A stretch of DNA of 64,000 bases from an uncultured Acidobacteriota bacterium (GTDB taxonomy: Bacteria; Acidobacteriota; UBA6911): NCBI GenBank assembly GCA_963843575.1, contig CAWJKZ010000026.1, positions 96,001 through 160,000 on the forward strand, read 5' to 3'. Shown here piece by piece: positions 24,985 to 54,694 of the stretch. The notes beneath the pieces are model-generated. The model saw only the letters and a list, made by a program, of their open reading frames with translations, made no database searches and was not told the DNA's origin. A program made the translations under genes and the position numbers. Position 1 is the stretch's first letter; each line of letters opens with the position of its first letter.

Positions 24985-25000
24985 GGGGAATTTATTCCGG
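24985..25000 (+). promoter_or_regulatory. Candidate upstream activator site
   Basis: GGGGAATTTATTCCGG; the same motif precedes four other sigma54 sites. Confidence 0.6.
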
Positions 25001-25064
25001 TCGAACTATCTGAGCCTCGGGTGACCTCTGGCCTGCAAGTCGCGTGTTCGCGTCGGGTCGGTTG

Positions 25065-25080
25065 TGGTACGCCCCTTGCT
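25065..25080 (+). promoter_or_regulatory. Sigma54 -24/-12 promoter of hemerythrin
   Basis: TGGTACGCCCCTTGCT. Confidence 0.75.
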
Positions 25081-25117
25081 TCAGGGATTGCGACACATCG
25101 AGCCGGAGGTGCTTCTG

Positions 25118-25625
25118 ATGGTTATAAAGAACAGGACGAATACCAGGCCCAACCGATCCGCCAGAAAAGATGCCATTGCCATGTTTGAAGGAGGACCACA
25201 AACGCGTGCAGTATCTCCTGGGAAAGCTCGAAGCGTCCTCGGGCCGCGCTTCAAAATCGCGGGACTCCCTGTTAGCGCGAGTCGAGCGGAAGTGAAAACG
25301 CACGCCACGTTGGAAGATGAGATCTTCTACCCCGCCTACAAAGAAGCGGTGCGCAAGAAAGAGGATCAGAAGCTCTACTTCGAGGCGGCAGAGGAGCACC
25401 ACGTCGCGGACGTGGTCATGGCGGAGTTCCAGGATCAATCCCGATTCGGAATCGTTTGCGGCAAAATGCAAGGTTCTGAAGGACTTGGTCGAGCACCATA
25501 TACGGGAGGAAGAACGTGAGATGTTCCCGGTGGCCCGGAAGACCCTTGGCTCGGATCGCTTGCAGGAGCTTGGCAAGCGCATCGAAGAGCGCAAAGAGGA
25601 ACTCATGGCCGAGAGCGGTCGATGA
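25118..25625 (+). CDS. Hemerythrin (HHE) domain protein, two frameshifts
   Basis: GGAGGT RBS; DAIAM/LKEDH, HATLEDEIFYP, EEHHV, HHIREEEREMFP. Confidence 0.85.
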
Positions 25626-25646
25626 TCCGCTGACGGTCTGTGGCCC

Positions 25647-28600
25647 ATGGGGCCTATGAAGTCGCCCACGAGGAAAACGGCACTGCTGATCACGGCTGCC
25701 GTGGCGCTACTGGTCGCGCTCACCGTTGCCTTACTGCGGACGCCTCTTGTCGTGCGCCTGGCGATGGAGCGCGCGCAGGCGTATCTGCACGACAACTACG
25801 GCATCGACCTCAGCGCCGGACACGCGGACATCGACGTGGCGCGGGGAACTCTCTGGATGCGGGACGTCCTGGCGAAATCCGCCGCGTATCCCGATCTCCC
25901 GGCGATTCTCCGAGTCGACGACGCCTCGGTCAACTTCAGCGTCTTCGACCTGCTCCGAGGGAGGATACACGTTCAATCCGCTCGTCTCACGGGACTGGCA
26001 TTGAACGTCGTTGTCGCGCCGGATGGGCGCAACAACCTGCCGAGCATTGAGCAGCGCGCGCCCTTTCGCGGCTTGCCTCCATTCGTTGTGGATTCGCTCA
26101 CCGTCGAGCGGGCATCGCTCTCCGTGGACGACAGGCAGAAGGACCGGGCCCTCGAGTTGCCGGAGTGGTCGCTGCGCATAATGGGCACGTCGCAACCACT
26201 TGCCCACGAACTCCGCATGAGGTTGCTGCGGGCAGGGATCGTCCGTGCCGAGGCTCGTACCGTCTCGATTGAGCAGTTTGACGCGGTCGCTGCCGTTTCC
26301 AGGACCGACGTGCAGACCTCGACGATCGCGGTGCGTATCGGCGGTTCCTCGCTGCAGATGCGCGGCGCAGTCCGCGACCTCGGGGATCCCGTGCTCGACC
26401 TCTCTTTCGACTCCGTACTGGACCTGCCGGCGCTCAGTCGTCTTGCTCAGACCCCTGAGCAGGTAGGGGGGACATTGCGGGTGAGCGGCCGAGTTGCCGG
26501 AAAGCCGAGTGCCCTCGTGGTTTCAGGCCACGCTCGAGGGGATGGAATCTCAACCGCCGGGTATGACCGGGTCCGCCTCGAGACGGACTATCGCTTTCGT
26601 TCCGGCGACCCTCGTTTGGAGATTGAAAACCTCGACATCTTCTCCCCTTACGGCAGGGTGCAGGCACGCGGCGCGGCGGCTCTTACTCCGGAGCTGCGGA
26701 GTTCGATAGAAGGTCGCATCGAAGACTGGGATCTGGCCCCTCTGGGCCGGTTCCTCGACAAATCCGTGCGGGTTGCCAGCCGCGCAACCGCGAGGTTTGC
26801 GGTGTCGTGGTCCGGTATGGAGGTGGCAAGCGTGTCGGGGTTTGGGCGGCTGCAGCTTGTGCCGAACCGGCAGGCGGCGGCTCGAGGTCTCCTGCCTCTC
26901 GGCGGGGCTGTCGTCGTCCGAGCCCGACCTGGCCAGATCGACGCCACCCTGGAGGCGTTGAGTTTGTTGGGAGCCAGGATTTCCGGTTCGGCCACGTTGC
27001 GCGACGGAAGCCGGATATCCGGCGAAATCACAGGGGATGTCGCTGCCGTGGACCGCTTCCAGGACCAGCTCCAGTCACTCCTGGGAAGGCCCGGCGCTTT
27101 GCTACCCATTCAACTTGCCGGAAGGGCGGCTGTTTCTGCGCGTTTGGCGGGCACCATGTCGGCGCCGTCGGCCGAAGGAACAATTGAGTCTTCCGATCTG
27201 GCATTCGGCCGACTGCGCAACCTGGCTCTGACGGCCCACGCCTACCTTGATCCAGCCCGGCTCTTGATCCGGGATGCCGTGGCGAACATGGGCGGCCAGG
27301 TGCTCCGTATCGCCGGAACTGTCGGATTCGGCGGGAGGGACCCGGTGCTGGACCTCGAGGCTGCTCTGGAGCGTGGATCCATAGTTGCGCTTCTGGCTGC
27401 GGCAGACCTCGACGTTCCTATGAACGGGACGATCGAGGCCCGTGCCCGCGTGGCCGGCCCACTTGGTCAACTGCAGGGGGACGCACACGTTTCGGCGACG
27501 GGGCTGGTGGTCGGGGGGGAAACGCTGGGAACTTTCGGTTTGGATGCCATCCTGGGTGCGGGAACTCTCCGGACGACAAGGGCCGTGCTACAGAAAACCG
27601 CGGGAGACGAAGCCGCCGGTTACATGACCGCCGACGCTTCCTACGACGTCGAATCAGGGATATTTGCCTTCAACGCCGCGGCGCGGGAGTTTTGGCTTCC
27701 GCAGAGACTGCCTGTTGGCGGTAGCATCTCAGGCACTGCTGCGGGCCAGGGCACAGTGCAGGATCCCGTGATCGATCTCAAACTCGAGATCCCGGACATG
27801 TCGGTTCGGGGGGAGAGCGTCGGGAACGCGAGTTTGACCGCGGCGCTCCGGGGAGACGACGGCGAGGTGCGTGCGGAGTTGCCCCGTCTCAACCTGTCCG
27901 CAAACGGTAAGGTCCAGGCGCGTTCCCCGTTCCCGGCCGAGCTGCACGTCGAAGCCCGGGACCTCGACTTGTCGCTGCTCAGGCTCCCGGTTGCCGACGG
28001 TCAGGTACTGGCCGGCCGCATCGACGCTGCCGCAACGGGGACGGCAAACCTAAAAGAATGGAAGGCGGGGGAGGTTTCCGTTGTGGTCAGGAAAGCCAAC
28101 TTGGTTGCGCGTTCCCGGGAACTGCGCAACGACGGCCCAGTACAGGCCCGATATCAGCGAGGCACGTTGGAGATCGACGAGGCTCGTCTCGTGACGGAGT
28201 CGTCCTCCCTGGTTGTCGCCGGCACGATTGCACTCGACCGCGAGGCCCCCCGCAGCAAGCTCACGTTGAAAGGAGCACTCGAGATCGGGGACCTGCAACC
28301 GTTTTTCGAATCTCCTCCCGGTTTCTTCGCGTCCGGCTTGTTGAAATTCGACATGGCGCTGGAGGGAACCCCAGCGGAGATCGGAGCTTCCGGTGGTTTC
28401 TCCATGTCCGACGGCTTTCTGCATGTGCCCCAGATCCGACTGCCACTCACCGATATCGCGATCGATGGGAGTCTGGGCGACGGCGCGGTGCAGGTGCGAT
28501 CGGCCGAATCGCTGTGGGGCGCAGGGCGGATTACATACGCCGGCGAGATTCCGCTTGGGCTGCTCCCGAGAATGCCGTTTCGCTTCGAGCGGAAGCAGGG

Positions 28601-31600
28601 GGCGGCGCGCTTCGAGCTGACCTTCAGCAATCCCCGGCTCGAAGCGACCGAGGAGCTGCCGGCAGGCGTAGGGGGATCCCTCGACCTGCAGGTGCGCGGG
28701 GAACTCGGGCGTCCGGACCTGGAGTCACTCCGCGCCGTCGCGACAAGCAACAGGCTTCAGCTGACCGCCGGAGAGCTGGTCTTCGAACAACCACGCCCTG
28801 CCACGATCACGGTCCGGGACGGAACCGTGCGGGTTGACAACTTCGCACTCCAGGGTCCGGGTAGCCGCGTCGCGGTGAGCGGCACCGCGGGCCTGCTCGG
28901 CGAGCATCCGCTCGACCTGCGTGTCGATGGGGACGTGGATGCAGGGATCTTTTCGGTCTTCTCCAGCGATCTGCGGCTCACCGGCACTACCCGCCTCGAG
29001 GTGGCCGTGAAAGGCACCACGAGTGCCCCCGCGGTGTCAGGATTCGCGCAGCTTCAGGACGGAGAAGCCAGCGTCCGGTCTCTCCGGCTCGGTGCGGACG
29101 ATCTGAACGTCAAGCTGGGCTTCGCCGGGAACCGCATGACGGTCCAGACTCTCGCGGGTACCCTGAACGGCGGGACCCTGAGCGGCACTGGGACTCTCGA
29201 CTACAAGGGGACCACTCTTACCGGCTTGAACCTTGGCGCCCGGCTCGACGGCGTGTACGTCGGTTACCCCGAAGGGTTGCGCGCCATTGTCAACGGTAAC
29301 CTGAACATCAAGAGCACGGAAAGCCCCATCGTGGTCGGCGGGACGATCCTGGTGCAGGAGGGGTCGTATACCGAGCCCTCCCAGGCGGGGGGACTGTTCG
29401 GCGCCCTCAGTTCGAAGCAGGTCCTGGATGTCAGCCAGAAGCGAGACCCAGTCCTGTCGCGGATTCGCTACAACGTCGCGGTGCGTACGGTCGACCCCGT
29501 CTCGGTCTCCACCGGCATGGCAAAGCTTGCGGCCAGCGGCAATCTCCGGCTGGTCGGGACCTACTACAACCCTTCCATCGTGGGTCGGGCGACTTTCGAC
29601 GAAGGGGGCGAACTCCGGCTGAACGAGAGACAATACGTGCTCGATCAGGGGTCGATCAGCTTCGTCAACGAAAACCGCATTGAGCCGGTGCTTGATATCG
29701 AGGGCCGGACCGAGGTGGCCGGCTACGATATCAACCTCGCATTGACCGGAACGCCGGAGAACCCGAAAACCGCCTTGACCTCCGACCCACCCTTGCCGGA
29801 ACCGGACATCCTCTCACTCCTCCTCACCGGCCGGACCCAGGAGGAGTTTCGCGGCGAGGAGCTGGAGTTTGCCAAGGAACAGGCACTTTCGCTTGTGGCG
29901 GGGGAGGCGGGCGCCCGGATATCCCAGGGTGCGCAACGAGTCCTGGGGCTCAGTACGGTGCGGATCGAGCCCAACCTCATCTCGCCCGAATCGGATCCCG
30001 GCGCCAGGTTGACGGTAGGACAGAATCTCACCAACGATCTGCGGCTCATATATTCCATGAACCTAGTCAACAGCAACGACCAGATCTGGATCGGGGAGTA
30101 CGACGTGACGCGCCGCTTCGTCACCCGCGCGCTCAAACAGCAGGACAACAGCTACAGGTTCGAATTCCAGCACGATCTGCGCTTCGGCGGATCCGCCTCC
30201 ACCGGAAGGGTGCGACGATTCGACCGCACCAAGCGCGAAGTCGGCACCGTGTCGTTCAAGGGGGGAACGGCCCTGGGCGAGAAACGGCTGCAATCCAGGC
30301 TGAACTTCAAGAGCGGGGACCGTTATGACTTCACCAAAGTTCAGAAAGCGAGGGAAGATCTGAGGGGCTACTTCGCCTCGGAGGGGCGGCTCGAGTCAAA
30401 AGTCTCGGTCAGCAGGAGCGGGGAAGACGGCAAGGTCGACCTGGCCTTTGCCGTGACGCCGGGACCGCGGGTCCGCTTCTTCTTCGACGGGGATCCCGCA
30501 CCGCGCGGTGCGGCCGAGAAGGTCGCCAGCGTCTGGAGCGACGGTGTTTTCGATCTGCAGCGTGTTCAGGATGCGGTGCAAGCCATACGCCGCTCCCTGA
30601 TCGCCGAAGGGTATCTGCAGTCCGACGTCCGTTACCGCATAGAGCAGGAGGGAGAGGCGAAGGATGTCCACTTCACCATCCGACGGGGTGCGACGTTTCA
30701 CGACGTCCAACTCGTCTTCAGCGGGAACTCGGACGTCGAGTCGGCGGAACTGCGGCACCAGATCGTCGCGGCGAAGCTGGAGAACGCGGTCTACAACGAT
30801 CCGTCCCAAGTTGTCGACCTGCTGGCGAACTATTACCGAACCCAGGGCTACACTCACGCCAAGGTGGAGTCGCCGAAACTGGACTTGAACCCGTCGACGG
30901 GCTCCGGACGTGTCGAGATCCCGATCAAGGAGGGTCCCCGGTTCAGGATAGGGCAGGTCGTTTTCCAGGGAAACACCCTCTCCGACGATACCCTCAGGCG
31001 AGCCTCGGCTCTCGGCACCGGGACCATTTTCGCCGCGAGGGAGGTTGACGGTGCCCTGGAACGGATCGACCGCTTCTATCACAGCCGCGGGTATAACGAT
31101 GCGACCTTCGACTACGAAACCCTGCTCGACGACAGCACCGGTCTTGCCGAAGTGCGGTTCCGGATCGAGGAGCGACGACGGACCGTGATCCAGAGCATCG
31201 TGGTGCAAGGTAATGAACGGACCCCGACCTCGTTCGTGCGCAAACAGTTGAGCATCTCGGAAGGGGAAATTCTCGATCCCGAGGCGATCGCTCGTTCCCG
31301 CCGGGCGCTCTACGATACCGGGGTGTTCACTCTGGTCGATTTCGACACGCAACCAGCCGATGCCGTTTCACCGGCGGGAAACACGAAACGGGTGGACATC
31401 ACGGTCAAGCTGCGCGAGGTCAAACCGTACCGTTTCCGTTATGGGGGATTCTACGATACCGACCGCGGCGCTGGTTTCACGGGGGACATCTCCAACCGCA
31501 ATTTTCTCGGGCGCGCCGCCGTCGTCGGGCTGCACACGCGCTACGACGGAACGATGAAGGAGGCCCGCACCTATTTCGGGCAGCCGTTCACATTCGGCAT

Positions 31601-32426
31601 TCCGCTACAGACCAATGTCACGGCGTTCGTCCAGCGGGAGTCGCGCCCGGCCTACACCCTCGACAGGGTCGGCGCTTCCCTGGTCCAGGAAAAACAACTG
31701 CACGACCGCTATATCCTGAACTATGGCTACCGGTATGAACGGGTCAAGGCTCCGCAGGGCTTACCCGACCCCCTGCTCCGATTCACGAGCATGGTGCCGC
31801 TGGCACGCCTGACTGCGAGCATCACGGGGGATACGCGCGATGACATGCTCGACGCCACCCGCGGCTCGTTTCACTCGCAGGCCCTCGAGTACGCACCGGG
31901 GCTGCTCGGCGGGGATGCCCGCTTCGTGAAGTACTTCGGCCAGTATTTCCGCTACGTGCCCTTGAGCCGTCCTCAGAGGTTGTCCTCAGGCCGCGTCGTG
32001 CCCCGCTTCGTGTATGCAGGCGCGCTGCGCATCGGGCTATCCAAGGGCTTGGGAGGCCAGGAAGTGATCACGCCGGAGCGGTTTTTCGCCGGCGGCGGGA
32101 CCACGATGCGCGGATTCCGGCAGGACCGCCTCGGCCCGCTGGACGAAAACGGCAGGCCCGAGGGGGGGGAAGCCATGTTCCTCTTGAACAACGAGGTACG
32201 CCTGCCGTTGTTTGCGATCTTCGGCGGCGTCGGCTTCGTCGACATCGGGAATGTCTACCCCAGCGTTCGGGATTTCAATCCCTTCGATGTGCGAAAATCG
32301 GCCGGCGTGGGGCTGCGCGTCCGTACGGGGTACGTGGTCATCCGGGCGGATTACGGCGTCAAGCTCGATCGCAGAACCGGCGAGAGCCGGGGAGCCCTTT
32401 TCTTCAGCATAGGCCAGGCCTACTAG
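25647..32426 (+). CDS. TamB (DUF490)-POTRA-Omp85 fusion protein, 2259 aa
   Basis: N-terminal TM anchor, long beta-rich AsmA/TamB region, LTSDPPLPEPDILSLLLTG, several POTRA units, RFFAGGGTTMRGF, terminal FFSIGQAY; single uninterrupted ORF. Confidence 0.9.
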   Translation: MGPMKSPTRKTALLITAAVALLVALTVALLRTPLVVRLAMERAQAYLHDNYGIDLSAGHADIDVARGTLWMRDVLAKSAAYPDLPAILRVDDASVNFSVFDLLRGRIHVQSARLTGLALNVVVAPDGRNNLPSIEQRAPFRGLPPFVVDSLTVERASLSVDDRQKDRALELPEWSLRIMGTSQPLAHELRMRLLRAGIVRAEARTVSIEQFDAVAAVSRTDVQTSTIAVRIGGSSLQMRGAVRDLGDPVLDLSFDSVLDLPALSRLAQTPEQVGGTLRVSGRVAGKPSALVVSGHARGDGISTAGYDRVRLETDYRFRSGDPRLEIENLDIFSPYGRVQARGAAALTPELRSSIEGRIEDWDLAPLGRFLDKSVRVASRATARFAVSWSGMEVASVSGFGRLQLVPNRQAAARGLLPLGGAVVVRARPGQIDATLEALSLLGARISGSATLRDGSRISGEITGDVAAVDRFQDQLQSLLGRPGALLPIQLAGRAAVSARLAGTMSAPSAEGTIESSDLAFGRLRNLALTAHAYLDPARLLIRDAVANMGGQVLRIAGTVGFGGRDPVLDLEAALERGSIVALLAAADLDVPMNGTIEARARVAGPLGQLQGDAHVSATGLVVGGETLGTFGLDAILGAGTLRTTRAVLQKTAGDEAAGYMTADASYDVESGIFAFNAAAREFWLPQRLPVGGSISGTAAGQGTVQDPVIDLKLEIPDMSVRGESVGNASLTAALRGDDGEVRAELPRLNLSANGKVQARSPFPAELHVEARDLDLSLLRLPVADGQVLAGRIDAAATGTANLKEWKAGEVSVVVRKANLVARSRELRNDGPVQARYQRGTLEIDEARLVTESSSLVVAGTIALDREAPRSKLTLKGALEIGDLQPFFESPPGFFASGLLKFDMALEGTPAEIGASGGFSMSDGFLHVPQIRLPLTDIAIDGSLGDGAVQVRSAESLWGAGRITYAGEIPLGLLPRMPFRFERKQGAARFELTFSNPRLEATEELPAGVGGSLDLQVRGELGRPDLESLRAVATSNRLQLTAGELVFEQPRPATITVRDGTVRVDNFALQGPGSRVAVSGTAGLLGEHPLDLRVDGDVDAGIFSVFSSDLRLTGTTRLEVAVKGTTSAPAVSGFAQLQDGEASVRSLRLGADDLNVKLGFAGNRMTVQTLAGTLNGGTLSGTGTLDYKGTTLTGLNLGARLDGVYVGYPEGLRAIVNGNLNIKSTESPIVVGGTILVQEGSYTEPSQAGGLFGALSSKQVLDVSQKRDPVLSRIRYNVAVRTVDPVSVSTGMAKLAASGNLRLVGTYYNPSIVGRATFDEGGELRLNERQYVLDQGSISFVNENRIEPVLDIEGRTEVAGYDINLALTGTPENPKTALTSDPPLPEPDILSLLLTGRTQEEFRGEELEFAKEQALSLVAGEAGARISQGAQRVLGLSTVRIEPNLISPESDPGARLTVGQNLTNDLRLIYSMNLVNSNDQIWIGEYDVTRRFVTRALKQQDNSYRFEFQHDLRFGGSASTGRVRRFDRTKREVGTVSFKGGTALGEKRLQSRLNFKSGDRYDFTKVQKAREDLRGYFASEGRLESKVSVSRSGEDGKVDLAFAVTPGPRVRFFFDGDPAPRGAAEKVASVWSDGVFDLQRVQDAVQAIRRSLIAEGYLQSDVRYRIEQEGEAKDVHFTIRRGATFHDVQLVFSGNSDVESAELRHQIVAAKLENAVYNDPSQVVDLLANYYRTQGYTHAKVESPKLDLNPSTGSGRVEIPIKEGPRFRIGQVVFQGNTLSDDTLRRASALGTGTIFAAREVDGALERIDRFYHSRGYNDATFDYETLLDDSTGLAEVRFRIEERRRTVIQSIVVQGNERTPTSFVRKQLSISEGEILDPEAIARSRRALYDTGVFTLVDFDTQPADAVSPAGNTKRVDITVKLREVKPYRFRYGGFYDTDRGAGFTGDISNRNFLGRAAVVGLHTRYDGTMKEARTYFGQPFTFGIPLQTNVTAFVQRESRPAYTLDRVGASLVQEKQLHDRYILNYGYRYERVKAPQGLPDPLLRFTSMVPLARLTASITGDTRDDMLDATRGSFHSQALEYAPGLLGGDARFVKYFGQYFRYVPLSRPQRLSSGRVVPRFVYAGALRIGLSKGLGGQEVITPERFFAGGGTTMRGFRQDRLGPLDENGRPEGGEAMFLLNNEVRLPLFAIFGGVGFVDIGNVYPSVRDFNPFDVRKSAGVGLRVRTGYVVIRADYGVKLDRRTGESRGALFFSIGQAY

Positions 32427-32574
32427 ACCCCTGAAGTGCGTGAAGCATGGAGCGCGCCGCCTGCGGTGGCGTCGAGCCGCCCGTTCCGCGATCCGGCCGA
32501 TACTGGAACTCTCTTCGGGGACTGGCTATAGTGGTGCGGAGTCGTTCTCTCAAACCCGTTCCGGGGGTGTCCCC

Positions 32575-34575: not shown

Positions 34576-34757
34576 TTTTCCTAACCTCCGAACCCGGCAG
34601 AATTGCGGCTCATGGTAGCGCAATTACGCGGTTTTGACACCAACTTGAAACGAGGGTTTGACTTGCTCTTAGCCCGCGCCTGATGTATTTTGCCGTGCGT
34701 AGGAGTTTGCCGCCCGGCGAGGCGGTTGCCCCCCAACTCGAATCAAGGATTTTATCA

Positions 34758-42365: not shown

Positions 42366-42403
42366 ACTGAAAAATACGTTAACGTATTCGTGAACATCAG
42401 TAC

Positions 42404-44809: not shown

Positions 44810-44838
44810 TTGACAACCCCGGAGGTGGGTTGTAGGTT
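44810..44838 (+). promoter_or_regulatory. Putative sigma70 promoter of fhs
   Basis: TTGACA-17 bp-TAGGTT about 70 bp before the GTG start. Confidence 0.55.
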
Positions 44839-44909
44839 GAGGGCGCACTTGCCTGATGTGCTGGTGCTCCGCATGTGCGTCTGCTTTTGAATTTCCACAG
44901 GAGCCTACC

Positions 44910-46674: not shown

Positions 46675-46774
46675 GCCGGGTTGAACGAGGAGGCCGGCCA
46701 CGGAGTCCCGGTGCGGTTCCTCCTTGGGGGCGGATTGTTCCGGCTGGTTGCGTTGTGCTAGGCTGTCGCCGTTT

Positions 46775-47572: not shown

Positions 47573-47584
47573 GGGACGCCGAAT

Positions 47585-48190
47585 ATGTCGCTCCTCCGGC
47601 TGAAGGACCGGTTCCTGGCCAACCCTTGGGTTTACGACCACCTCCGACCCCTGGTCGTCGGCGGCATCGATCACGCGGAACTCGCCCGTTTCTGCGGCGT
47701 GGGGCCCGACGACCGGGTCTTCGATCTGGGGTGCGGAACGGGCCAGTTGGTGCCCCATATCACGTGCGCGGAGTACCTGGGCGCCGACCTGGACGAGGAG
47801 GCGCTGAAGAGGGCCGCACGCTACGCCTCCGCGGGCGTCCGGTTCATCCACGGAGACCAGTGGGATTCGGCGCTGGGCGTGCTGCGGCCGACAGTCGTCC
47901 TGATGATCGGCGTCGTCCACCATCTGGCCGACGGCGACTTCCACTCGCTCATCGACAGGTTGCGCCGGCAGGGAAGCGTGCGTCGTATCGTCACGCTCGA
48001 TGTCTCCTACCTCCCAGGCGAACCGGTCAACAACCTGTTCAGCCGGCTGGACAGGGGCCGCCACGTGCGCTCCCCGGAGCGGTACGAAGCGTTGTTCCGG
48101 GAGGGAGCCCTGCGCATCACCGTGCGCAAGACCCTTGCGACCCGGCTGCGCTACGTGCACTACATCGGATACCACCTCTCGATAGAATAA
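47585..48190 (+). CDS. Class I SAM-dependent methyltransferase
   Basis: FDLGCGTG, GADLD, GVVHHL. Confidence 0.85.
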   Translation: MSLLRLKDRFLANPWVYDHLRPLVVGGIDHAELARFCGVGPDDRVFDLGCGTGQLVPHITCAEYLGADLDEEALKRAARYASAGVRFIHGDQWDSALGVLRPTVVLMIGVVHHLADGDFHSLIDRLRRQGSVRRIVTLDVSYLPGEPVNNLFSRLDRGRHVRSPERYEALFREGALRITVRKTLATRLRYVHYIGYHLSIE

Positions 48191-48253
48191 GCACGCCCAA
48201 GCCTGATGCGGGCGGCCTGCGGAAACACTCGCTCAGGGAGCACCAGGTCTGCC

Positions 48254-48269
48254 AAGGGAAATGTTCCCC
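48254..48269 (-). promoter_or_regulatory. Candidate upstream activator site
   Basis: Reverse complement GGGGAACATTTCCCTT. Confidence 0.55.
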
Positions 48270-48335
48270 GTAACCTGTGCCTGCCGGAGGTGCCCCCTGA
48301 CGCCGGATCGTTAACCCGCCGCTAGTTACCGCGCA

Positions 48336-48351
48336 TGGCATGACGATTGCC
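48336..48351 (+). promoter_or_regulatory. Sigma54 -24/-12 promoter
   Basis: TGGCATGACGATTGCC. Confidence 0.75.
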
Positions 48352-48399
48352 TTCAGCTTTTGAGAGTAAGTGGGTAATTCAATCAGGTAAGGAGGCAGT

Positions 48400-49224
48400 A
48401 TGTTTTGCAGAACAGGAATCGTCCTTTCCGCCTTGGCGCTCGGGTTGACCCTTGCGGTACCGCAGGCGAACGCCGACGTGTGGAACAAGAAAACTGTCAT
48501 TACCGTTCGGGAAACATTGCGAATCCCGACGACAACCCTGCAGCCCGGCAAGTACGTTCTGAAACTGGCGGAATCGGCTTCGAACCGCCATATAGTCCAG
48601 ATTTTCAACGAAGACGAGTCCCAGGTGCTTGCGACGATCCTGGCGATTCCCAATGAACGACTGGAGCCGACCGGCGATACCGTGCTCGAGTTGTGGGAAA
48701 CACCCAAGGGAGAGGCCCGGGCGCTTCGGGCGTGGTTCTACCCAGGCGACAGCTTCGGCCAGGAGTTCGCGTACCCGAAAGCCGAAGCGACGGCTTTGAC
48801 GGCTGAAGTCCACCAGGAAGTCCCTGCGCTTTCGGCGGAAGACGAGGCAGCCCTTGCCAGTCGGTCGACGAACTCCTCCGGATCCGAGGTCGCGGCGAAC
48901 CGCCCGGAAACCGCTGCCCCGGCGCAACCCTCCGCCCTGGACGACAGCACTCGCGAGATGGCGAGGACCGACAACGAAAGCACTCCGCCGCCGGCTCCCG
49001 AGACCCACAGCTCGGCGAGTGACATGTCGTCCAGTTCTTCCGACCAATCCGCCAGCGAAAAACAGGACAGCTCGGGTATGGCGACAGAGGAAACCTCCGG
49101 AGCACATTCCGCATACGCCGGGAGTGAGCTCCCCCGTACCGCGAGCTTTCTCCCCCTTCTCGGCCTGACCGGCCTTTTGGCCGTCGGCGCCGCCACGGTC
49201 CTGCGTGCAGCATCGGGCCGTTAA
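48400..49224 (+). CDS. Secreted protein with LPxTG-like C-terminal sorting signal
   Basis: AAGGAGG RBS, signal peptide, AWFYPGDSFGQEFAYPK domain, Ser/Ala linker, LPRTAS plus hydrophobic helix plus basic tail. Confidence 0.8.
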   Translation: MFCRTGIVLSALALGLTLAVPQANADVWNKKTVITVRETLRIPTTTLQPGKYVLKLAESASNRHIVQIFNEDESQVLATILAIPNERLEPTGDTVLELWETPKGEARALRAWFYPGDSFGQEFAYPKAEATALTAEVHQEVPALSAEDEAALASRSTNSSGSEVAANRPETAAPAQPSALDDSTREMARTDNESTPPPAPETHSSASDMSSSSSDQSASEKQDSSGMATEETSGAHSAYAGSELPRTASFLPLLGLTGLLAVGAATVLRAASGR

Positions 49225-49415
49225 TCCCCCCGGGTCTCGGGAACGGGAGCGGGCACCCGCACCCGCGGAGCCGCAATCCCTTTCCTGGCGTGCCTTTCAG
49301 GCCAGGAGGCCGGGTCGGATACCCTGGTGCTCCTGCCCATCCTCGAGTAATATTACAGGGGGAGGCGTTGCTTCCTGGCGCCCCCCCATCTGAATTCCAG
49401 GCTGTTCACCCCGTA

Positions 49416-50354
49416 ATGAGATTCATAACGCTGGGCTTCTTTTTCGTACTGGCAGTCACGGTCGCTCTGGCCGTGGTGCAGGACGAGCCGGGCGACTCCG
49501 CGAAGCCCTACACCATGGCCGCCAGGGTCGAGATGGTGGCACTTGACCTCACCGTCGTCGATCGCCGCGGCTCTTTTGTTTCCGGTCTGACCGAAGGCGA
49601 TTTTCGGGTCCTCGAGGACGGCGTACCCCAGCAGATCAAGCTCTTCAGCCACGAGGACGTTCCGGTGACGATTGGCCTGGTCGTCGACAACAGCGGCAGC
49701 ATGCTCGAGAAACGATCGTATGTCATCGGCGCCGCGCTCGCGTTTGCGCAGTCCAGCAATCGTGACGACGAGCTTTTCGTAGTTCATTTCAACGACGACC
49801 TGGATTTCGGACTCGGGCCGGGCGTCGATTTTACGAGCGACGTCGGACAACTCAGGAAAGCCCTGTTGCGGTTGACGTGCGAAGGACGAACGGCGCTCTA
49901 TGACGCTCTCACTGCTGGGCTGCTGCACATTAGCAGGGGCCGGTACCAGAAAAAGGCGCTGCTGGTTGTGAGTGATGGACAGGATAACGTCAGCGGAACG
50001 GGTTTCGAAGAGGCGCTCGAGCTGGCCCGCCATTCCGGCGTTGTTATTTATACGATCGGGGCGTACAACCCCGTCACCGACCGGCACAACACCAAGGTGC
50101 TCAAGAAACTGGCCGACGTTACGGGGGGGCAGTTCTACTTTCCCTCGGGTCTGCCGCAGATTATCTCCCATTGCCGCCGCATCGCCAAAGGGATGCGCAC
50201 CAGCTACAGGGTCGGCTACTACTCGACCAACACCCGGCGCGACGGCGCATACCGCCATGTCGTCGTAACTGCCGGCCCACCAGCCAGAGGCAAACTTGCC
50301 GTGAAGGTACGCGAGGGGTACTATGCCCCTCCGCCGGACGGTTCCGGGAACTGA
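49416..50354 (+). CDS. VWA domain protein (acidobacterial type)
   Basis: VDRRGSFVSGLTEGDFRVLEDG, MIDAS DNSGS, TALYDA, SDGQD, TGG, YRVGY. Confidence 0.88.
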   Translation: MRFITLGFFFVLAVTVALAVVQDEPGDSAKPYTMAARVEMVALDLTVVDRRGSFVSGLTEGDFRVLEDGVPQQIKLFSHEDVPVTIGLVVDNSGSMLEKRSYVIGAALAFAQSSNRDDELFVVHFNDDLDFGLGPGVDFTSDVGQLRKALLRLTCEGRTALYDALTAGLLHISRGRYQKKALLVVSDGQDNVSGTGFEEALELARHSGVVIYTIGAYNPVTDRHNTKVLKKLADVTGGQFYFPSGLPQIISHCRRIAKGMRTSYRVGYYSTNTRRDGAYRHVVVTAGPPARGKLAVKVREGYYAPPPDGSGN

Positions 50355-50420
50355 AAGCGGGGGAAGATTTCCCGGCTTCTCTTGTCAATCCCGGCCCTCA
50401 AGCTATCCATCCCTTGTCGG

Positions 50421-50768
50421 TTACGCCCACGAATTGCGCCCCGCCGGAGAGCTCGACCTGCCTGCGGAGGGCCTCAGAGAGAACGGGATCACCGCAGCCG
50501 AAGTCAGGATGGCCGAGTGCTTGGTGGAGGCCATGGTCGGCGAGTGGGAGCCAGGCAAGTACCGGGATGAGTACCGCGACGACCTCATGGCCCTGACGAA
50601 GGGTTGATCAGGGCGACTCGGGCGGTCGAGGACGCTGAGGCGCCTAAGCCCAGAAGTTCTGCAAAGGTCGTAGACATCCTGGACCTGTTGAAGGAGAGCG
50701 TCCAGCGGGCGGATAAGGGAGAGCCCCGGGAAAGAAAAAAGCACGAGGGGCGGCGCATAGCCGGATAG
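50421..50768 (+). pseudogene. ku: Ku (NHEJ) C-terminal remnant
   Basis: YAHELR...EVRMAECLVEAMVGEWEPGKYRDEYRDDLMAL, then (shifted frame) AKVVDILDLLKESV; N-terminal two thirds missing. Confidence 0.75.
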
Positions 50769-50787
50769 CGCGCCTCCTTTGGCGGCC

Positions 50788-50803
50788 GGGGAATAAATTC
50801 CTG
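50788..50803 (+). promoter_or_regulatory. Candidate upstream activator site
   Basis: GGGGAATAAATTCCTG. Confidence 0.6.
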
Positions 50804-50865
50804 TCCCGGAACCTGGAAAGCCCGTTCCGTGAATGGAAGCGGTTGAATCCTGTGCATTTCACTCG

Positions 50866-50881
50866 TGGTACGGCTCTTGCG
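50866..50881 (+). promoter_or_regulatory. Sigma54 -24/-12 promoter
   Basis: TGGTACGGCTCTTGCG. Confidence 0.75.
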
Positions 50882-50996
50882 TCCCGTGCGTCGAGATTTT
50901 CTTGAGTTTAGTTGTGAAGGGCCATAGTCGGGTGTCACGAGGTGGCTGGTGTTGGAATGACGCCCGCCACGAGTTTCCTAAGGAAATGGGGGGATC

Positions 50997-51341
50997 ATGG
51001 ACGAGAGAGAAACCGTCAACCCGGGCAGTCCGGGCGAGTCTGGGGACGGACGTTCCTTCAAGGCATCCCGGTTCGAAGAGGCCAAGAGGACCGTGGCAGA
51101 CAAGCTCCACGACGCGGCCGGGGCGCTCAGGGGCAAGACAGCCGAGCCCAGTTCGGGCCTGGGCCGCTATGGCTACCAGGCATCCGACTGGCTCGACCGC
51201 TCCGCCGAGTATGTCCGCCGGTTCGATTACCAACGCGCTAACGCGCAGGTGAAAGACTACATCCGCGACAATCCGGGCCGGAGTCTGCTTATGGCGGGCG
51301 CGGCCGGCCTGATCATCGGAGCACTCGTCCGACGACGGTAG
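50997..51341 (+). CDS. ElaB/YqjD (DUF883)-like tail-anchored protein
   Basis: YIRDNPGRSLLMAGAAGLIIGALVRRR C-terminus. Confidence 0.8.
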   Translation: MDERETVNPGSPGESGDGRSFKASRFEEAKRTVADKLHDAAGALRGKTAEPSSGLGRYGYQASDWLDRSAEYVRRFDYQRANAQVKDYIRDNPGRSLLMAGAAGLIIGALVRRR

Positions 51342-51357
51342 AGGAGTATTGATTTTT

Positions 51358-51771
51358 ATGAATAGAGTGCTGACCAAAGAGGACGTACCTGTCCTGCAGC
51401 GGGAGTCGTTTGGCGAACTGCTCGGCCAGTTGGCCGGCCACTCGGCAGCGCTTGTCCGGGATGAGATCGAACTGGCGAGGCAGGAAACACGCGAGAAGTT
51501 GCGTTCTCTGAGCAGCGGCGCGATCACCCTTGGAGTCGGGGTGGCCCTGGTCTGGATGGCTCTTCTGACGTTGTGCGCTGCCCTCGTGGTCGGCCTTTCC
51601 GCCCACATGGGCCCGGGACTGGCCGCGCTGGCTACCGGGTTGGGGCTCGCAGTGATCGGTGGGGCCATTGGCTTCGTCGGGTTCCACCGTTTGAAGAAAA
51701 CCGGGCTTACACCGAAGAAAACGATACGGTCGCTGAAGGAGAATAAGGAATGGCTGAAAGAGATGACCTGA
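51358..51771 (+). CDS. YqjE/DUF1469 holin-like membrane protein
   Basis: SFGELLGQL...LVRDEIELARQE, two TM helices, PKKTIRSLKENKEWL. Confidence 0.85.
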   Translation: MNRVLTKEDVPVLQRESFGELLGQLAGHSAALVRDEIELARQETREKLRSLSSGAITLGVGVALVWMALLTLCAALVVGLSAHMGPGLAALATGLGLAVIGGAIGFVGFHRLKKTGLTPKKTIRSLKENKEWLKEMT

Positions 51772-52259
51772 AACTCAATGCCGAACGAAGCACAGACGCG
51801 ATCCGCCGCGACATCGCGGCAAAGCGGGAAACGATCTCCGAGACCGTCGACAGGCTGGGCGAGCGCATTCAGGAGAAGCTCGATTGGCGAGGCTACGTCT
51901 CCGAATACCCCTACTGGGCCATTGGTGCGGCGGCGGGACTGGGCTTTGTCGCGTCCCAGTTGATGCGCCGGCGTGCCTCTCCGCTCGACAGGATTTCCTA
52001 TGCGGTCAAAGACACGGTCGAGGAATTGGGGGACCAGGTCCGGCATGCACTGGGCGGGGCCCTCGTTAGGGCGAGCGGGCGCGGCCTGGTGAAAGGCACG
52101 CTCTACGGGATGGCTACCAAGATCGCCGTCGATTGGCTGAAGGGGGCGGCATCCAACGCGCTGAGTTCAGGCAACCACGACGAATCCGCGCGACCGACGC
52201 CCTCCGCAGCGAACGCGTGGGCGCACAATCCAGAACCAAGCTCCACCAGGCCAATCTAG
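51750..52259 (+). CDS. DUF3618-like protein
   Basis: DAIRRDIAAKRETISETVDRLGER, YPYWAIGAAAGLGF; overlaps the YqjE stop. Confidence 0.75.
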   Translation: MAERDDLKLNAERSTDAIRRDIAAKRETISETVDRLGERIQEKLDWRGYVSEYPYWAIGAAAGLGFVASQLMRRRASPLDRISYAVKDTVEELGDQVRHALGGALVRASGRGLVKGTLYGMATKIAVDWLKGAASNALSSGNHDESARPTPSAANAWAHNPEPSSTRPI

Positions 52260-52289
52260 GTCTGACGGACTTACTGACGAGGAGGAACT

Positions 52290-52637
52290 ATGGACGCTGA
52301 AAACACCAACCCCGATCCTAACCGGCAAATCGCGGCCGGCCCCGGCAGCACCAACCCGCGAGATCTCCTCAACCGCGGCAGCGATGTCTACAACCAGACC
52401 AAACAGACCGTGAGCCAGGCGTACGACCGAACCGCACGGAAGCTGAGCCAGGGGTACGACCAGGCGATCAGCTACGGACGCGACAATCCAGGAACAGTGA
52501 CGCTGGTCGCATTCGGTGCCGGGTTTGCCCTGGGATTGCTTCTGTCCGGGACACGCCGCAGCCGCACAAGCCGGTACGCCGAGCCTATCGTCAACGTGCT
52601 TTCCGACATCGCTCTCGATTTCGTACGCCATCGCTGA
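52290..52637 (+). CDS. ElaB/YqjD-like membrane-anchored protein
   Basis: GAGGAGG RBS; YGRDNPGTVTLVAFGAGFALGLLL. Confidence 0.7.
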   Translation: MDAENTNPDPNRQIAAGPGSTNPRDLLNRGSDVYNQTKQTVSQAYDRTARKLSQGYDQAISYGRDNPGTVTLVAFGAGFALGLLLSGTRRSRTSRYAEPIVNVLSDIALDFVRHR

Positions 52638-52649
52638 GCCCAAACGAAA

Positions 52650-52676
52650 CGAGGCGCCCGGTTGCCGGGCGCCTCG
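52650..52676. terminator. Hairpin between convergent operons
   Basis: CGAGGCGCCCGG-TTG-CCGGGCGCCTCG. Confidence 0.7.
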
Positions 52677-52707
52677 CGCAATCTCCCAACACAAATCTCG
52701 TCACAGG

Positions 52708-52929
52708 CTATTGTGCCGGCACGTGCCGGTCGTCGAACGTGCCAATCCGCTCCTCTACTTCCCGTTCTGCCCGTTCCTTGTTGTATCCATACCGCTCCTG
52801 GATCTTCCCAATGAGCCGGTCCTTGGACCCGGCGATCTGGTCGAAGTCGTCCTCGGTTAGACGACCCCACCATATCTTCAGGTCGCCCTTCATCTGTTTC
52901 CATTTTCCCTTCAGGATGTCACTGTTCAT
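52708..52929 (-). CDS. CsbD/YjbJ family stress protein
   Basis: MNSDILKGKWKQMKG...WGRLTEDD...GKIQERYG. Confidence 0.92.
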   Translation of the reverse strand: MNSDILKGKWKQMKGDLKIWWGRLTEDDFDQIAGSKDRLIGKIQERYGYNKERAEREVEERIGTFDDRHVPAQ

Positions 52930-52980
52930 CCCCGATGCCCTCCTTGCATTCATTTCGAAGCTCCCCGCTCTACCGCGTAC

Positions 52981-53166
52981 TCACGAACGGGTAAGCACTT
53001 CTTCCGGCCGGTCCACGAACAAGTCCGCGTCCCGATCCCGAGAAAGCTGATACACGGCGTCGAAGCACGCATCGCAAAAATCCAAGTGATCGAGAACTGC
53101 GAGTTGATCGTCGAGTTCGAGCCGCTTGTCGAGGTATTCGACCAGTTTGTCAAAGTCGCATTTCAT
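52981..53166 (-). CDS. Stand-alone zf-HC2 (ZAS) zinc-finger protein
   Basis: MKC...EYLD...HLDFCDAC (HxxxCxxC); 61 aa. Confidence 0.7.
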   Translation of the reverse strand: MKCDFDKLVEYLDKRLELDDQLAVLDHLDFCDACFDAVYQLSRDRDADLFVDRPEEVLTRS

Positions 53167-53218
53167 CGCCCACCCCCTGTCGTGCCGGCCGGGAGCCGTC
53201 ACCGTCTGTCGCCCGCTT

Positions 53219-53368
53219 CTATACCACCCTGCGCCCGCTGATGAGCTGGAACACCACGGCTACGATCGCAAGGACCAGCAGGATGTGGATGAACCCGCCA
53301 AGCGTGTAGGACGTGGCAATACCCAAGAGCCAAAGCACCAGCAGAATCACGAAAATCGTCCAAAGCAT
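53219..53368 (-). CDS. lmo0937 family (DUF5670) small membrane protein; not in the supplied ORF track
   Basis: Hand translation MLWTIFVILLVLWLLGIATSYTLGGFIHILLVLAIVAVVFQLISGRRVV*. Confidence 0.9.
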   Translation of the reverse strand: MLWTIFVILLVLWLLGIATSYTLGGFIHILLVLAIVAVVFQLISGRRVV

Positions 53369-53457
53369 CTATACCACCCCCCCCTGTTTCAGAATTCCTA
53401 CGGCGCCGAACCGACAGCGGGTGCAGCGCTGAACGGCTTCGCCGTCACCGCAAGGTA

Positions 53458-53473
53458 TGCAATTAGAGAACCA
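53458..53473 (-). promoter_or_regulatory. Sigma54 -24/-12 promoter
   Basis: Minus strand TGGTTCTCTAATTGCA. Confidence 0.7.
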
Positions 53474-53569
53474 GATGAAACAACTGGCACGCAGCCGCGG
53501 TAGCCCCCCAAAATCAAAGGCCCTGATGCTGGCGCGCCTGTGACGGGAGGCGTAGTAACCACTCGCGGA

Positions 53570-53585
53570 CGAGGAAAGATTCCCC
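53570..53585 (-). promoter_or_regulatory. Candidate upstream activator site
   Basis: Minus strand GGGGAATCTTTCCTCG. Confidence 0.55.
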
Positions 53586-53692
53586 ATGGTGACGGGACAC
53601 CGGCGGACGCGGCAAACCGGACGTACGGTCCCGCGACAACGCCGTGCTGAACGGCGCTTGGGGGAGACATTGTCAGGTATTTTTTGCGCATT

Positions 53693-54180
53693 TCAGCGCA
53701 CTACCTCCGCGCCGCAAGCATCCAGGATTTTGTGGGCGATACCCTTTCGGTCCGCATGCGCATAGACACCGACGAGCATTGCCCCTTTTACGAGCTCTTC
53801 GTTGTAGAACCTAGCTTCGTGCTCGGGTATGCCCAGCCCGACGAGGGCGCCGGTCAAGCCGCCGGCGGCTGCGCCAGCTCCGACCCCGGCGAGCACCGCA
53901 ACGACGGGCCCCGCGGCGAGCAGTGCGAGTCCGGGGATTGCGATTGTTCCGAGAGCGACCAGGCCTGCGGCGACGCCGCCAAGTACGCTCCGACGGTGGC
54001 GCCCGTGGCCGCGCCTTCGGGTGCCTTTGTGGACATTTCGAGACCAAACTCGCGACCTCGCGTCGCCTCCGTCATAAGAAGGCTGATATCGTCACGCGAG
54101 AAGCCTGCGCGCATCAGGTCGTCGATCGCGCGTTCCGCCGCTTCCCGTGTTTTGAAGATCCCTGATACCAAGACTGCCAC
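53693..54180 (-). CDS. General stress protein (YflT/17M-like, glycine-rich), one frameshift
   Basis: GIFKTREAAERAIDDL..GFSRDDISLL, GALVGLGIPEHEARFY; GGAGGAG RBS. Confidence 0.8.
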
Positions 54181-54216
54181 CTTCTGCTCCTCCTGTCTGA
54201 TGATTTAAAACCGGGG

Positions 54217-54405
54217 TTAATCGGCTGCGGGTTTTGTGGGGTCAAGTGTCGCCAACAGATCGCGCAATTCGTCGGCGTGCTCCTCCTCGTTGGCGAGCAC
54301 CTCCTCCATGATCCGCCTGAATGTGATGTCGTCGTCGCCGAGGAAACGGATGAACCGGTTCAGGACCGGGATCACCTCCTGCGTGGATTTCGTCAGGTTC
54401 TTCAT
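54217..54405 (-). pseudogene. Internally deleted ferritin-like (bacterioferritin/Dps-like) gene
   Basis: N-terminal QEVIPVLN joined directly to C-terminal IRFLGDDDITFRRIMEEVLANEEEHADEL; only 62 aa. Confidence 0.65.
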
Positions 54406-54564
54406 ATCTCTCCGAAAGCGGCTCTCCCAAAACGGCGTCACCAGGATGGCAAAACGACTGCCGGGGCGCGGCCGGGGAGGAAGGGGGGTCACAAGACTCC
54501 TCGCAGGGATCGACCCGTGGTACCTATGCCGCTCCGGCGCTCACAGGAAGCCATTGTTCCCCAC

Positions 54565-54580
54565 GGCAATTCTCAGGCCA
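54565..54580 (-). promoter_or_regulatory. Sigma54 -24/-12 promoter
   Basis: Minus strand TGGCCTGAGAATTGCC. Confidence 0.72.
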
Positions 54581-54663
54581 AAATGGGGCAGAGGTATCGA
54601 TTTACTCCAGGGCTGAGATTCCCAGTAAGGTCAGGGGCGGCTCCCGGATGCATCCGGGGATTT

Positions 54664-54694
54664 CGAGGAGAGTTGCCCCTGGAAAAGTTTCCCC
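54664..54694 (-). promoter_or_regulatory. Tandem candidate upstream activator sites
   Basis: Minus strand GGGGAAACTTTTCCAG followed by GGGGCAACTCTCCTCG. Confidence 0.55.

Follow-up and report, generated by a model that had tools for sequence, protein, structure and literature searches.

The window analysed here, a stretch of 64,000 nucleotides on contig C26 of an uncultured Acidobacteriota genome, contains five transcription units that are each preceded by a -24/-12 element of the sigma-54 type and, farther upstream, by the same AT-centred palindrome. This promoter and enhancer-site architecture is well supported. We consider it likely that the five elements are sigma-54 promoters, each activated from one palindrome, most probably by an NtrC-family regulator encoded on contig C10.

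Acidobacteriota rank with the most abundant bacteria of soil, and full-text searches return a near-empty literature on their gene regulation. The elements described here define a testable circuit: they supply the site (13 bp), the class of promoter, a named candidate for the regulator with its kinase, and a list of targets. Its conservation extends to at least 20 genera within one family of soil Acidobacteriota, it is also seen in other classes, and it would give the phylum an initial, testable scheme for the control of stress and envelope genes.

The source genome (G000; 6.68 Mb in 27 contigs, 64% G+C) was searched together with 24 genomes of its family and 16 of its class, giving a set of 41 genomes. 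Its sister genome, G001, is syntenic with it over the island of units, at ~70-82% DNA identity.

Palindromes paired with -24/-12 elements

All five -24/-12 elements that an earlier note on this DNA had listed, with exact GG-N10-GC spacing, are present as quoted and where it had placed them (Table 1), and the common pseudo-palindrome that it had described is an AT-centred palindrome found 5' of each. In the window the palindrome has the form GGGAA-N3/4-TTCC. The consensus across the family is cAGGGAAAWTTTCCCtG, which we write in general form as GGGAAAWTTTCCC and as a probe as GGGAAAATTTCCC. From the start of the palindrome to the TGG of the promoter the distance is 77-80 bp in three units and 111-113 bp in two. 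The palindrome is enriched in the window as GGGAANNNTTCC, with 6 strand-matches against 0.81 expected and none of 100 shuffles reaching 6, and occurs as GGGAANNNNTTCC in 3 strand-matches against 0.65 expected (6 of 100 shuffles reach 3). The loose form GGGAAN{3,4}TTCC was rejected as a regulon marker, only the AT-centred versions being of consequence; its 158 matches genome-wide lie mainly in coding DNA and their flanks are not conserved.

The argument is carried by the pairing of the two elements. Within 40-160 bp of each other and in this order they occur seven times in the source genome, five of these in the window, where single-element counts predict about 1.1. With the strict pattern GGGAAN{3,4}TTCC-N{60,105}-TGGN8TTGC, seven pairs are found in the source genome and none when the same pattern is read backwards; over the 41 genomes the numbers are 89 and 8.

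For the relatives, 71 strict-pair matches were fetched and 4 were left unfetched, with the unpublished genome G034 (6 of the 89 matches) excluded. An AT-rich palindrome spacer (>=0.66, a threshold set after the matches had been inspected) is present in 58 of the 71; with redundant entries removed, 56 promoters are left. Their four free -24 positions have the frequencies C 0.77, A 0.80, C/T 0.51/0.35 and G 0.63, so that the downstream element reads TGGCAYG-N4-TTGC, the canonical sigma-54 consensus. Because the filter acted on the palindrome only, this signature is independent evidence for a sigma-54 promoter. The palindrome of the same promoters extends to cAGGGAAAWTTTCCCtGa.

The distance between the palindrome centre and the TGG falls, in 64 promoters, into classes of 68-74, 80-85 and 88-98 bp, with the gaps at 75-79 and 86-87 bp empty. 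This restricted spacing suggests a dependence on the face of the helix; the Rayleigh p of ~7e-4 to 1e-4 for periods of 10.5-12 bp (n=64) is overstated, many of the promoters being orthologous. In 11 of 65 promoters, compared with 1 of 65 reversed flanks, another palindrome-like site (no more than 3 mismatches) occurs within 60 bp. When a position weight matrix (PWM) built from the relatives is applied to intergenic DNA of the source genome, 24 sites score >=16 and 39 score >=14, and the predicted regulon would therefore be a sizeable share of the genome's sigma-54 promoters.

Both elements are also conserved islands between the source and sister genomes. In units 1, 2, 3 and 5 the palindromes are identical at 12/13, 11/12, 13/13 and 11/13 positions and the -24/-12 elements at 13/15 (the sister's counterpart of unit 1 is TGGCACGCCTCTTGC), 14/15, 14/15 and 15/15, respectively; the remaining upstream DNA of these units is only 40-55% identical (unit 1 flanks, 48%). 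The global alignment of unit 4 was mis-registered (palindrome 4/12), and local alignment, used in its place, reveals the same two islands, with TGGCTACCCAATTGCA as the promoter counterpart. The palindrome of unit 5 lies 122 bp ahead of an identical TGGCCTGAGAATTGC in the sister genome, versus 113 bp in the source genome.

Other short blocks are conserved near the palindromes. A 15-bp block just 5' of the unit 1 palindrome (CAAGATCTTATCGGC, 24966-24980, + strand) is identical in the two genomes within diverged surroundings, and units 1-3 have more such blocks in the interval from palindrome to promoter. A role as second binding sites or as IHF-type sites is conceivable.

Could the -24/-12 look-alikes be due to chance, the genes being transcribed by a sigma-70-family or extracytoplasmic function (ECF) sigma factor and the palindrome being an ordinary activator or repressor site? 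Taken individually, the five window sites are indeed at background level. By itself the pattern TGGN8TTGC shows no enrichment in the window (10 occurrences against 7.96 expected; 29 of 100 shuffles reach 10). Scored by eye against a crude consensus of 12 positions, the five sites reach 11, 10, 10, 9 and 9. Genome-wide, that consensus is enriched in intergenic DNA only at scores >=11: at 10 (75 of 374 sites intergenic) and at 9 (454/2562) the proportion equals the 18% background, a fraction measured on a gene map from a rough custom caller of open reading frames (ORFs). Because the loose pattern is unenriched and the score separates only at 11 and 12, single elements are not evidence. By PWM the window sites are weak matches as well (17.7, 14.7, 14.6 and two below 17), and TGGTTCT and TGGCCTG among them deviate from TGGCAYG. 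The genome, furthermore, has 38 sigma-70-family (region-2) matches in 6.7 Mb. We nevertheless regard a chance origin as highly improbable, given the TGGCAYG spelled by the free positions of the 56 relatives' promoters, the conserved blocks shared with the sister genome and the directional, spacing-restricted pairing (89 versus 8). Between C26:96001 and the contig end at 190084, moreover, no sigma-70-family gene, ECF factors included, was found. We also considered GGGAAT as the -35 box of an ECF promoter; by eye it has only a variably placed AAC downstream and no constant -10 partner, and the idea was dropped because of the free-position sigma-54 consensus and the blocks conserved between the two genomes.

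Table 1 Positions of palindromes, promoters and genes. Positions without a prefix refer to the window; others give contig and position, with locus coordinates in brackets.
Feature	Position	Strand	Sequence, size or evidence
Unit 1 palindrome	24986-24998	+	GGGAATTTATTCC
Unit 1 -24/-12 element	25065-25080	+	TGGTACGCCCCTTGCT; quoted in the earlier note as TGGTACGCCCCTTGC
Unit 1 hemerythrin gene	25129-25625	+	Sub-threshold Pfam match on two overlapping ORFs
DUF748-TamB-POTRA-Omp85 fusion	25647-32426	+	2259 aa; Pfam; four POTRA repeats and Omp85 barrel
Unit 2 palindrome	48256-48268	+	GGGAAATGTTCCC
Unit 2 -24/-12 element	48336-48351	+	TGGCATGACGATTGCC; quoted as TGGCATGACGATTGC; PWM score 17.7
Unit 2 secreted protein	48400-49224	+	274 aa; C-terminal LPRTAS
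Unit 2 VWA protein	49290-50354	+	TIGR03436 'acidobact_VWFA', 206 bits
Orphan palindrome	50361-50373	.	GGGAAGATTTCCC; sixth AT-centred copy in the window; no intact -24/-12 element downstream
Unit 3 palindrome	50789-50801	+	GGGAATAAATTCC
Unit 3 -24/-12 element	50866-50881	+	TGGTACGGCTCTTGCG; quoted as TGGTACGGCTCTTGC
Unit 3, four genes	50997-52637	+	Pfam; DUF883_C-like (114 aa), Phage_holin_3_6/YqjE-like (140 aa), DUF3618+DUF883_C (169 aa), LapA_dom-like (115 aa)
Unit 4 palindrome	53573-53584	-	GGGAATCTTTCC
Unit 4 -24/-12 element	53458-53473	-	TGGTTCTCTAATTGCA; quoted as TGGTTCTCTAATTGC
Unit 4, three genes	52708-53363	-	54-aa membrane protein, zf-HC2 (73 aa), CsbD (81 aa)
Unit 5 palindrome	54681-54693	-	GGGAAACTTTTCC
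Unit 5 -24/-12 element	54565-54580	-	TGGCCTGAGAATTGCC; quoted as TGGCCTGAGAATTGC
Unit 5 genes	53693-54492	-	Ferritin-like remnant (91 aa), YflT-like (108 aa), DUF1269-like (67 aa); sub-threshold Pfam matches
Candidate activator	C10:281390-282751		453 aa; receiver (PF00072), Sigma54_activat (PF00158, 226.8 bits), AAA_lid_14, HTH_8 (PF02954)
Receiver-only regulator	C10:280336-280956 (L002:6336-6956)	-	206 aa; receiver and ~70 residues without a Pfam family; predicted target
BON protein, promoter	C26:168541	-	TGGCACGGCTATTGCC; PWM score 21.1; palindrome with 3 mismatches
Sortase, promoter	C26:169545	-	Predicted target
Sortase, gene	C26:168781-169449 (L004:8781-9449)	-	Pfam Sortase, E 1e-31
Ysc84/EipA-like protein	C25:214891	+	Predicted target
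77-aa membrane protein	C10:503073	+	Predicted target
Lipoprotein	C15:86905	+	Predicted target
Orphan intergenic palindromes	C13:363395, C21:13702, C21:190788, C25:42026, C10:411316		0-1 mismatch to GGGAAANTTTCCC

Sigma factor and candidate activator

The genome carries rpoN; its PF04552 match (C14:375424-375897, 199.7 bits) falls within a 488-aa open frame. The earlier note had placed a single enhancer-binding protein outside the window. Some 21 sigma-54 activator genes are present in the genome, none of them on contig C26, and one candidate on contig C10 has the palindrome in its own upstream region, an association that points to this protein as the one that binds it. It has the domains of an NtrC-family response regulator (Table 1), with D56, GESGTGKE (Walker A) and GAFTGA identified by eye. 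None of the NCBIfam equivalogs is reached: AtoC scores 436.2 of the 714 bits needed, NtrC 414/559, the PEP-CTERM regulator PrsR 387/503 and ZraR 381/760, and GlrR is also below its cut-off. Directly downstream lies the gene for a membrane histidine kinase with HAMP, HisKA and HATPase_c domains. A four-helix-bundle sensor module is matched weakly, below threshold, and the NCBIfam families closest to the kinase, none of which it reaches at cut-off, are of the WalK, BaeS and CpxA types.

The 430-bp intergenic region upstream of the activator gene (C10:280957-281389) holds GGGAATTTTTCCT, GGGAATTTTTCCC and GGTAGAATTTCCC, together with a divergent TGGTACGCCAATTGCC before the gene for a receiver-only regulator. 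The promoter of the latter, divergent from the activator gene, is a good sigma-54 match with a palindrome 100 bp upstream; a 187-aa receiver-domain ORF is likewise found behind a pair in genome G009. The receiver-only regulator is possibly a feedback component.

Several lines of evidence link this regulator to the palindrome. Of the ~21 activator genes, its gene alone lies within 2 kb of a palindrome with no more than 1 mismatch. Orthologues, at 50-95% identity compared with 40-46% for paralogues, are found in most genomes of the family and several of the class, and 11 of 30 loci (27 of them orthologues at >=50% identity, one of which, L026, gave no upstream sequence) have a palindrome at most 350 bp upstream. 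A strict pair lies no more than 3.3 kb from the orthologue in eight genomes (G000, G001, G004, G006, G007, G009, G020 and G040). With G034 excluded, 20 of the 26 genomes that encode an orthologue of >=50% identity have one good pair or more, as do 3 of the 13 that lack such an orthologue. These counts are too low for G015, whose good palindrome was lost in de-duplication, and for G014, whose OmpA-like promoter reads TGGCGC; like the p-values, they overstate the association, since the relatives are not independent. The helix-turn-helix (HTH) stretch NKAEAAR-LG-DVKTIRNKLK is near-invariant in orthologues down to 57% identity; matches of 54%, 50% and 49% identity, like the paralogues, have an altered stretch. 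Among more distant, named Acidobacteriota metagenome-assembled genomes (Thermoanaerobaculia and others), 80 loci encode homologues of 48-62% identity. Five of these (L069, L071, L072, L112 and L143) keep a palindrome within ~175 bp upstream of the regulator, against a single palindrome in all 558 kb of the reversed control; a loose pair of doubtful quality is present in 3 of the 80.

In the mechanism that we propose, an extracytoplasmic signal would activate the HAMP kinase, which would then phosphorylate the C10 regulator. The regulator would oligomerise on the palindrome, a single 13-14 bp GGGAAA-N1/2-TTTCCC site per promoter centred ~70-105 bp upstream of the -24 GG, and DNA looping with ATP hydrolysis by the regulator would open the closed sigma-54 complex.

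A number of observations weigh against this scheme, in addition to the spacer threshold and the relatedness of the genomes mentioned above. Most promoters have one recognisable palindrome only, and many characterised activators use two or more sites. Genome G011 (86% complete) has four good pairs, and its best match to the regulator is at 49% identity with a different HTH; G029 has the conserved HTH and no strict pair. Five orphan intergenic palindromes in the source genome (Table 1) are without a recognisable -24/-12 element within 200 bp. They might be repressive sites, non-sigma-54 sites or chance matches, and, given them, the regulator may have further sites of action, or the palindrome may be recognised by a different protein. 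RNA sequencing runs searched with window positions 48200-54750 gave no match, and two soil DNA runs share few words with that segment. The link between regulator and site is one of guilt by association.

If a different protein binds the palindrome, be it another of the ~21 activators, a repressor or an architectural protein, then the palindromes at the C10 regulator gene would mark that gene and its neighbours as targets only. The assignment does consist of co-localisation and co-occurrence, and the pairs of G011, which has no clear orthologue, and the orphan palindromes would fit this reading. We judge it unlikely, however, since among all the activator genes only this one lies near a palindrome, strict pairs are close to its orthologue in eight genomes, palindromes persist upstream of five distant homologues against one in the whole reversed control, and the HTH is exactly conserved over the range of pair-bearing genomes. 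The C10 protein is the likely activator.

Genes of the five units

The gene labels of the earlier note hold in part. CsbD, zf-HC2, VWA, the 'yqjE-like' protein (Phage_holin_3_6) and DUF3618 reach the Pfam cut-offs, and the hemerythrin, ferritin, '17M-like' (YflT) and 'elaB-like' (DUF883_C) matches fall short of theirs, as does DUF1269. The name lmo0937, given to the 54-aa protein of unit 4, is not borne out, as that protein has no Pfam or NCBIfam match.

In unit 1, the hemerythrin gene is legible only by way of three frames, with two breaks that lie, by eye, near short TTT and AAAA runs. The orthologue in the sister genome is a single ORF of 183 aa, to which we attribute the one hemerythrin match in the relatives' Pfam tally (E 6.7e-17; the member is unnamed there). 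The broken frame could reflect a pseudogene or homopolymer assembly errors. The TamB-Omp85 fusion gene starts 22 bp after the hemerythrin ORF, in a gene order shared with the sister genome, and probably belongs to the same unit. Its 2259-aa product looks like a TamB-TamA-type translocation module merged in one protein.

The first protein of unit 2 was correctly described as an LPxTAS protein: after the C-terminal LPRTAS come a membrane segment and a basic tail, as in a sortase-type sorting signal. It has no family match in Pfam or NCBIfam. The VWA protein encoded next to it clusters with the second genes of eight relatives, in a cluster of nine. Beyond unit 2 stands the orphan palindrome; at the corresponding place the sister genome has an intact palindrome, TGGCATTGCAATTGC, a PEGA gene and Ku. 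Relative to the sister genome, ~1.3 kb is missing at 50345-50452, comprising the promoter, the PEGA gene and most of Ku. A 94-aa ORF after the orphan palindrome is a probable Ku C-terminal remnant, judged by eye and by synteny, and has no Pfam match.

The unit 3 operon is also found behind a pair in the sister genome and in G008 (genus g8). Unit 5 is intact in the sister genome, where DUF2383, ferritin-like and YflT genes each exceed the Pfam cut-off; at 54351-54769 the window lacks ~1.3 kb that hold the DUF2383 gene and the first half of the ferritin-like gene. Both gaps could be true deletions or assembly collapse.

Predicted regulon and its family-wide core

In the source genome the predicted regulon amounts to ~11-12 promoters. 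Besides the window units and the further targets of Table 1, the activator gene itself is weakly predicted as a target. The sortase and the LPRTAS protein, both behind a pair, are a possible dedicated sortase-substrate couple in a diderm. At the island edge, ~1 kb from the BON gene, lies a gene for a small Transgly_assoc (YmgE/YeaQ-type) membrane protein (C26:166735-166998, - strand; L004:6735-6998).

Among the relatives, the commonest first gene behind the pair encodes a protein of ~350 aa with a signal peptide, DUF5666, an alanine-zipper and C-terminal OmpA domains. BLAST clustering places 17 of the 56 first genes in this group (one of them, L184, is absent from the Pfam set), and Pfam detects OmpA in 15, DUF5666 in 11 and Alanine_zipper in 9. 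A VWA protein comes second after the OmpA-like gene in eight relatives, and occupies the second place in the window; among the 66 later genes, 6 match VWA_2. Response regulators, Crp-type regulators, PEGA, Gly-zipper_YMGG and OMP_b-brl account for two first genes each, and the rest are singletons. The core target of the family is a secreted DUF5666/OmpA-like plus Acidobacteria-type VWA operon, often beside the regulator gene.

Targets of stress type are found in the source genome and the sister genome, and sporadically elsewhere (the DUF883 operon in G008; csbD in G028, of another family of the class). The gene csbD was rejected as a regulon marker across the family: it is found in 9 of the 41 genomes, a same-strand pair lies upstream in 3 of the 15 csbD loci scanned, and in the source genome two of the three copies have no upstream pair.

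The regulon may accordingly be pictured in two layers. The first would be the family-wide core of secreted DUF5666/alanine-zipper/OmpA-like and VWA proteins. The second, found mainly in this genus, would add CsbD, DUF883/YqjE-like proteins, ferritin-like/YflT proteins, the hemerythrin with the TamB-Omp85 fusion, BON, the sortase with its LPRTAS-tailed protein, the Ysc84/EipA-like protein and, in the sister genome, Ku.

General stress or cell envelope

For the physiological label of the regulon, 'general stress' and 'envelope, osmotic or surface programme' are both candidates. The earlier note had proposed a general stress response. This stands in so far as the targets of the source and sister genomes include typical stress families, and fails to cover the family core, which is an OmpA-like/VWA envelope operon, or the distribution of csbD given above. 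The 38 sigma-70-family matches also mean that other stress sigma factors are possible. In its full form, in which sigma-54 and one two-component activator acting through GGGAAAWTTTCCC would replace RpoS, SigB or EcfG in this family of Acidobacteriota and so switch on the small stress proteins (CsbD, OsmY/BON, ElaB-like, Dps/YciF-like, YflT and Ku), we think the proposal rather unlikely.

Alternatively, the promoters and the site are real and serve a dedicated cell-surface or envelope programme that answers to one envelope, osmotic or desiccation cue, which we put forward tentatively. Its components would be the OmpA-like peptidoglycan anchor, the VWA protein, the sortase with its LPRTAS substrate, the TamB-Omp85 fusion, BON and the Ysc84/EipA-like protein, and the stress-named genes would be small membrane-associated proteins recruited in one genus. 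The predominance of the DUF5666/alanine-zipper/OmpA_C protein among first genes, the VWA gene that follows it, the PEGA, Gly-zipper_YMGG and OMP_b-brl first genes and the sortase, BON and Ysc84/EipA-like targets of the source genome all agree with this. So do the HAMP kinase, with its weak four-helix-bundle match and its sub-cut-off resemblance to WalK, BaeS and CpxA, and the sparse occurrence of csbD. Less easily accommodated are the cytoplasmic-type stress targets in the genus (Ku, ferritin-like/DUF2383 and hemerythrin) and the presence of CsbD, YflT, OsmY/BON, ElaB/YqjD and YciE/F-like proteins, families that we take to belong to SigB or RpoS regulons. Francke et al. proposed that sigma-54 controls the bacterial exterior (PMC3162934); an envelope programme agrees with that proposal and the core OmpA-like/VWA operon fits it.

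The two labels overlap, and sequence alone cannot separate them. If the stress label is right, a sigma factor of another mechanism can take charge of the 'general stress proteins', the general stress response would have an independent, ATP-gated solution, and the C10 protein would be the first candidate master stress regulator for the phylum, none being described in the literature searched. If it is wrong, a new enhancer-binding-protein regulon of the cell envelope is still at hand. In either case the regulon could aid the annotation of DUF5666/OmpA, Acidobacteria-type VWA, DUF883 and DUF3618 proteins.

Comparison with known systems

In the full-text literature searched, neither a sigma-54 regulon nor a stress regulon nor this motif is described for Acidobacteriota; supplementary tables of PMC3162934 and PMC4641369, which give promoter and motif predictions for many genomes and may bear on novelty, lie outside that coverage. 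The string 'acidobacteri' does not occur in the main text of PMC3162934. Neither GGGAA nor TTCCC occurs as a string in the main text of the Desulfovibrio vulgaris regulome paper (PMC4641369), a statement that excludes its logos and supplements.

The system has features of the dedicated sortase system of proteobacteria, which, going by the TIGRFAMs descriptions, we take to consist of a sortase, a VWA-type target, the OmpA-like PdsO and a two-component system. A sortase, an LPxTA-tailed protein, VWA and OmpA-like proteins and a kinase/regulator pair are all found here. The matches to that system are far below the NCBIfam cut-offs (PdsO, 62.7/152 bits; kinase, 105/612 bits), and we treat the likeness as a lead only.

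Sigma-54 and a dedicated activator also serve stress or envelope genes elsewhere. PspF of the phage-shock system is without a receiver domain, and psp genes, unlike in that system, are not seen here. In Borrelia, sigma-54 works through one promoter, that of rpoS. The regulon described here resembles both of these systems, and that of the D. vulgaris activators DVU3305, DVU1419 and DVU3381, in joining sigma-54 and an activator to stress or envelope genes. The Borrelia pathway in question is the Rrp2-RpoN-RpoS cascade. In the regulome table of D. vulgaris, the targets of DVU3305 are labelled 'general stress response' and those of two other activators 'envelope stress response' (PMC4641369).

The overlap with sigma-70-family stress regulons lies in the targets. 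CsbD, YflT (GSP17M), BON/OsmY, DUF883 (ElaB/YqjD), YqjE-like, ferritin-like/DUF2383 and Ku proteins are shared with the regulons of SigB (Bacillus and Listeria), RpoS (E. coli) and EcfG (Alphaproteobacteria); csbD/yjbJ, yflT, osmY, elaB/yqjD/yqjE and dps/yciEF are taken to be members of the SigB or RpoS regulons. SigB, RpoS and EcfG are sigma-70-family factors controlled by partner switching or proteolysis, whereas a sigma-54-type promoter and an ATP-dependent activator are used here. Unlike theirs, the present regulon is small, and not all csbD copies belong to it.

In mechanism, this is an ordinary NtrC-type two-component sigma-54 regulon; new are the orthologous group, the site, the targets and the phylum. 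As in NtrBC, ZraSR, AtoSC and GlrKR/QseEF, a regulator with receiver, AAA+ (GAFTGA) and HTH_8 domains adjoins a histidine kinase. As in other regulons of the NtrC family, a palindromic site stands ~70-105 bp before a GG-N10-GC promoter, and palindromes are found in the regulator's own upstream region. The site GGGAAAWTTTCCC is presumably distinct from the NtrC and NifA sites. In contrast to the named members of the family, the C10 regulator reaches no NCBIfam equivalog cut-off, and its targets are stress and envelope proteins in place of nitrogen, zinc or acetoacetate genes.

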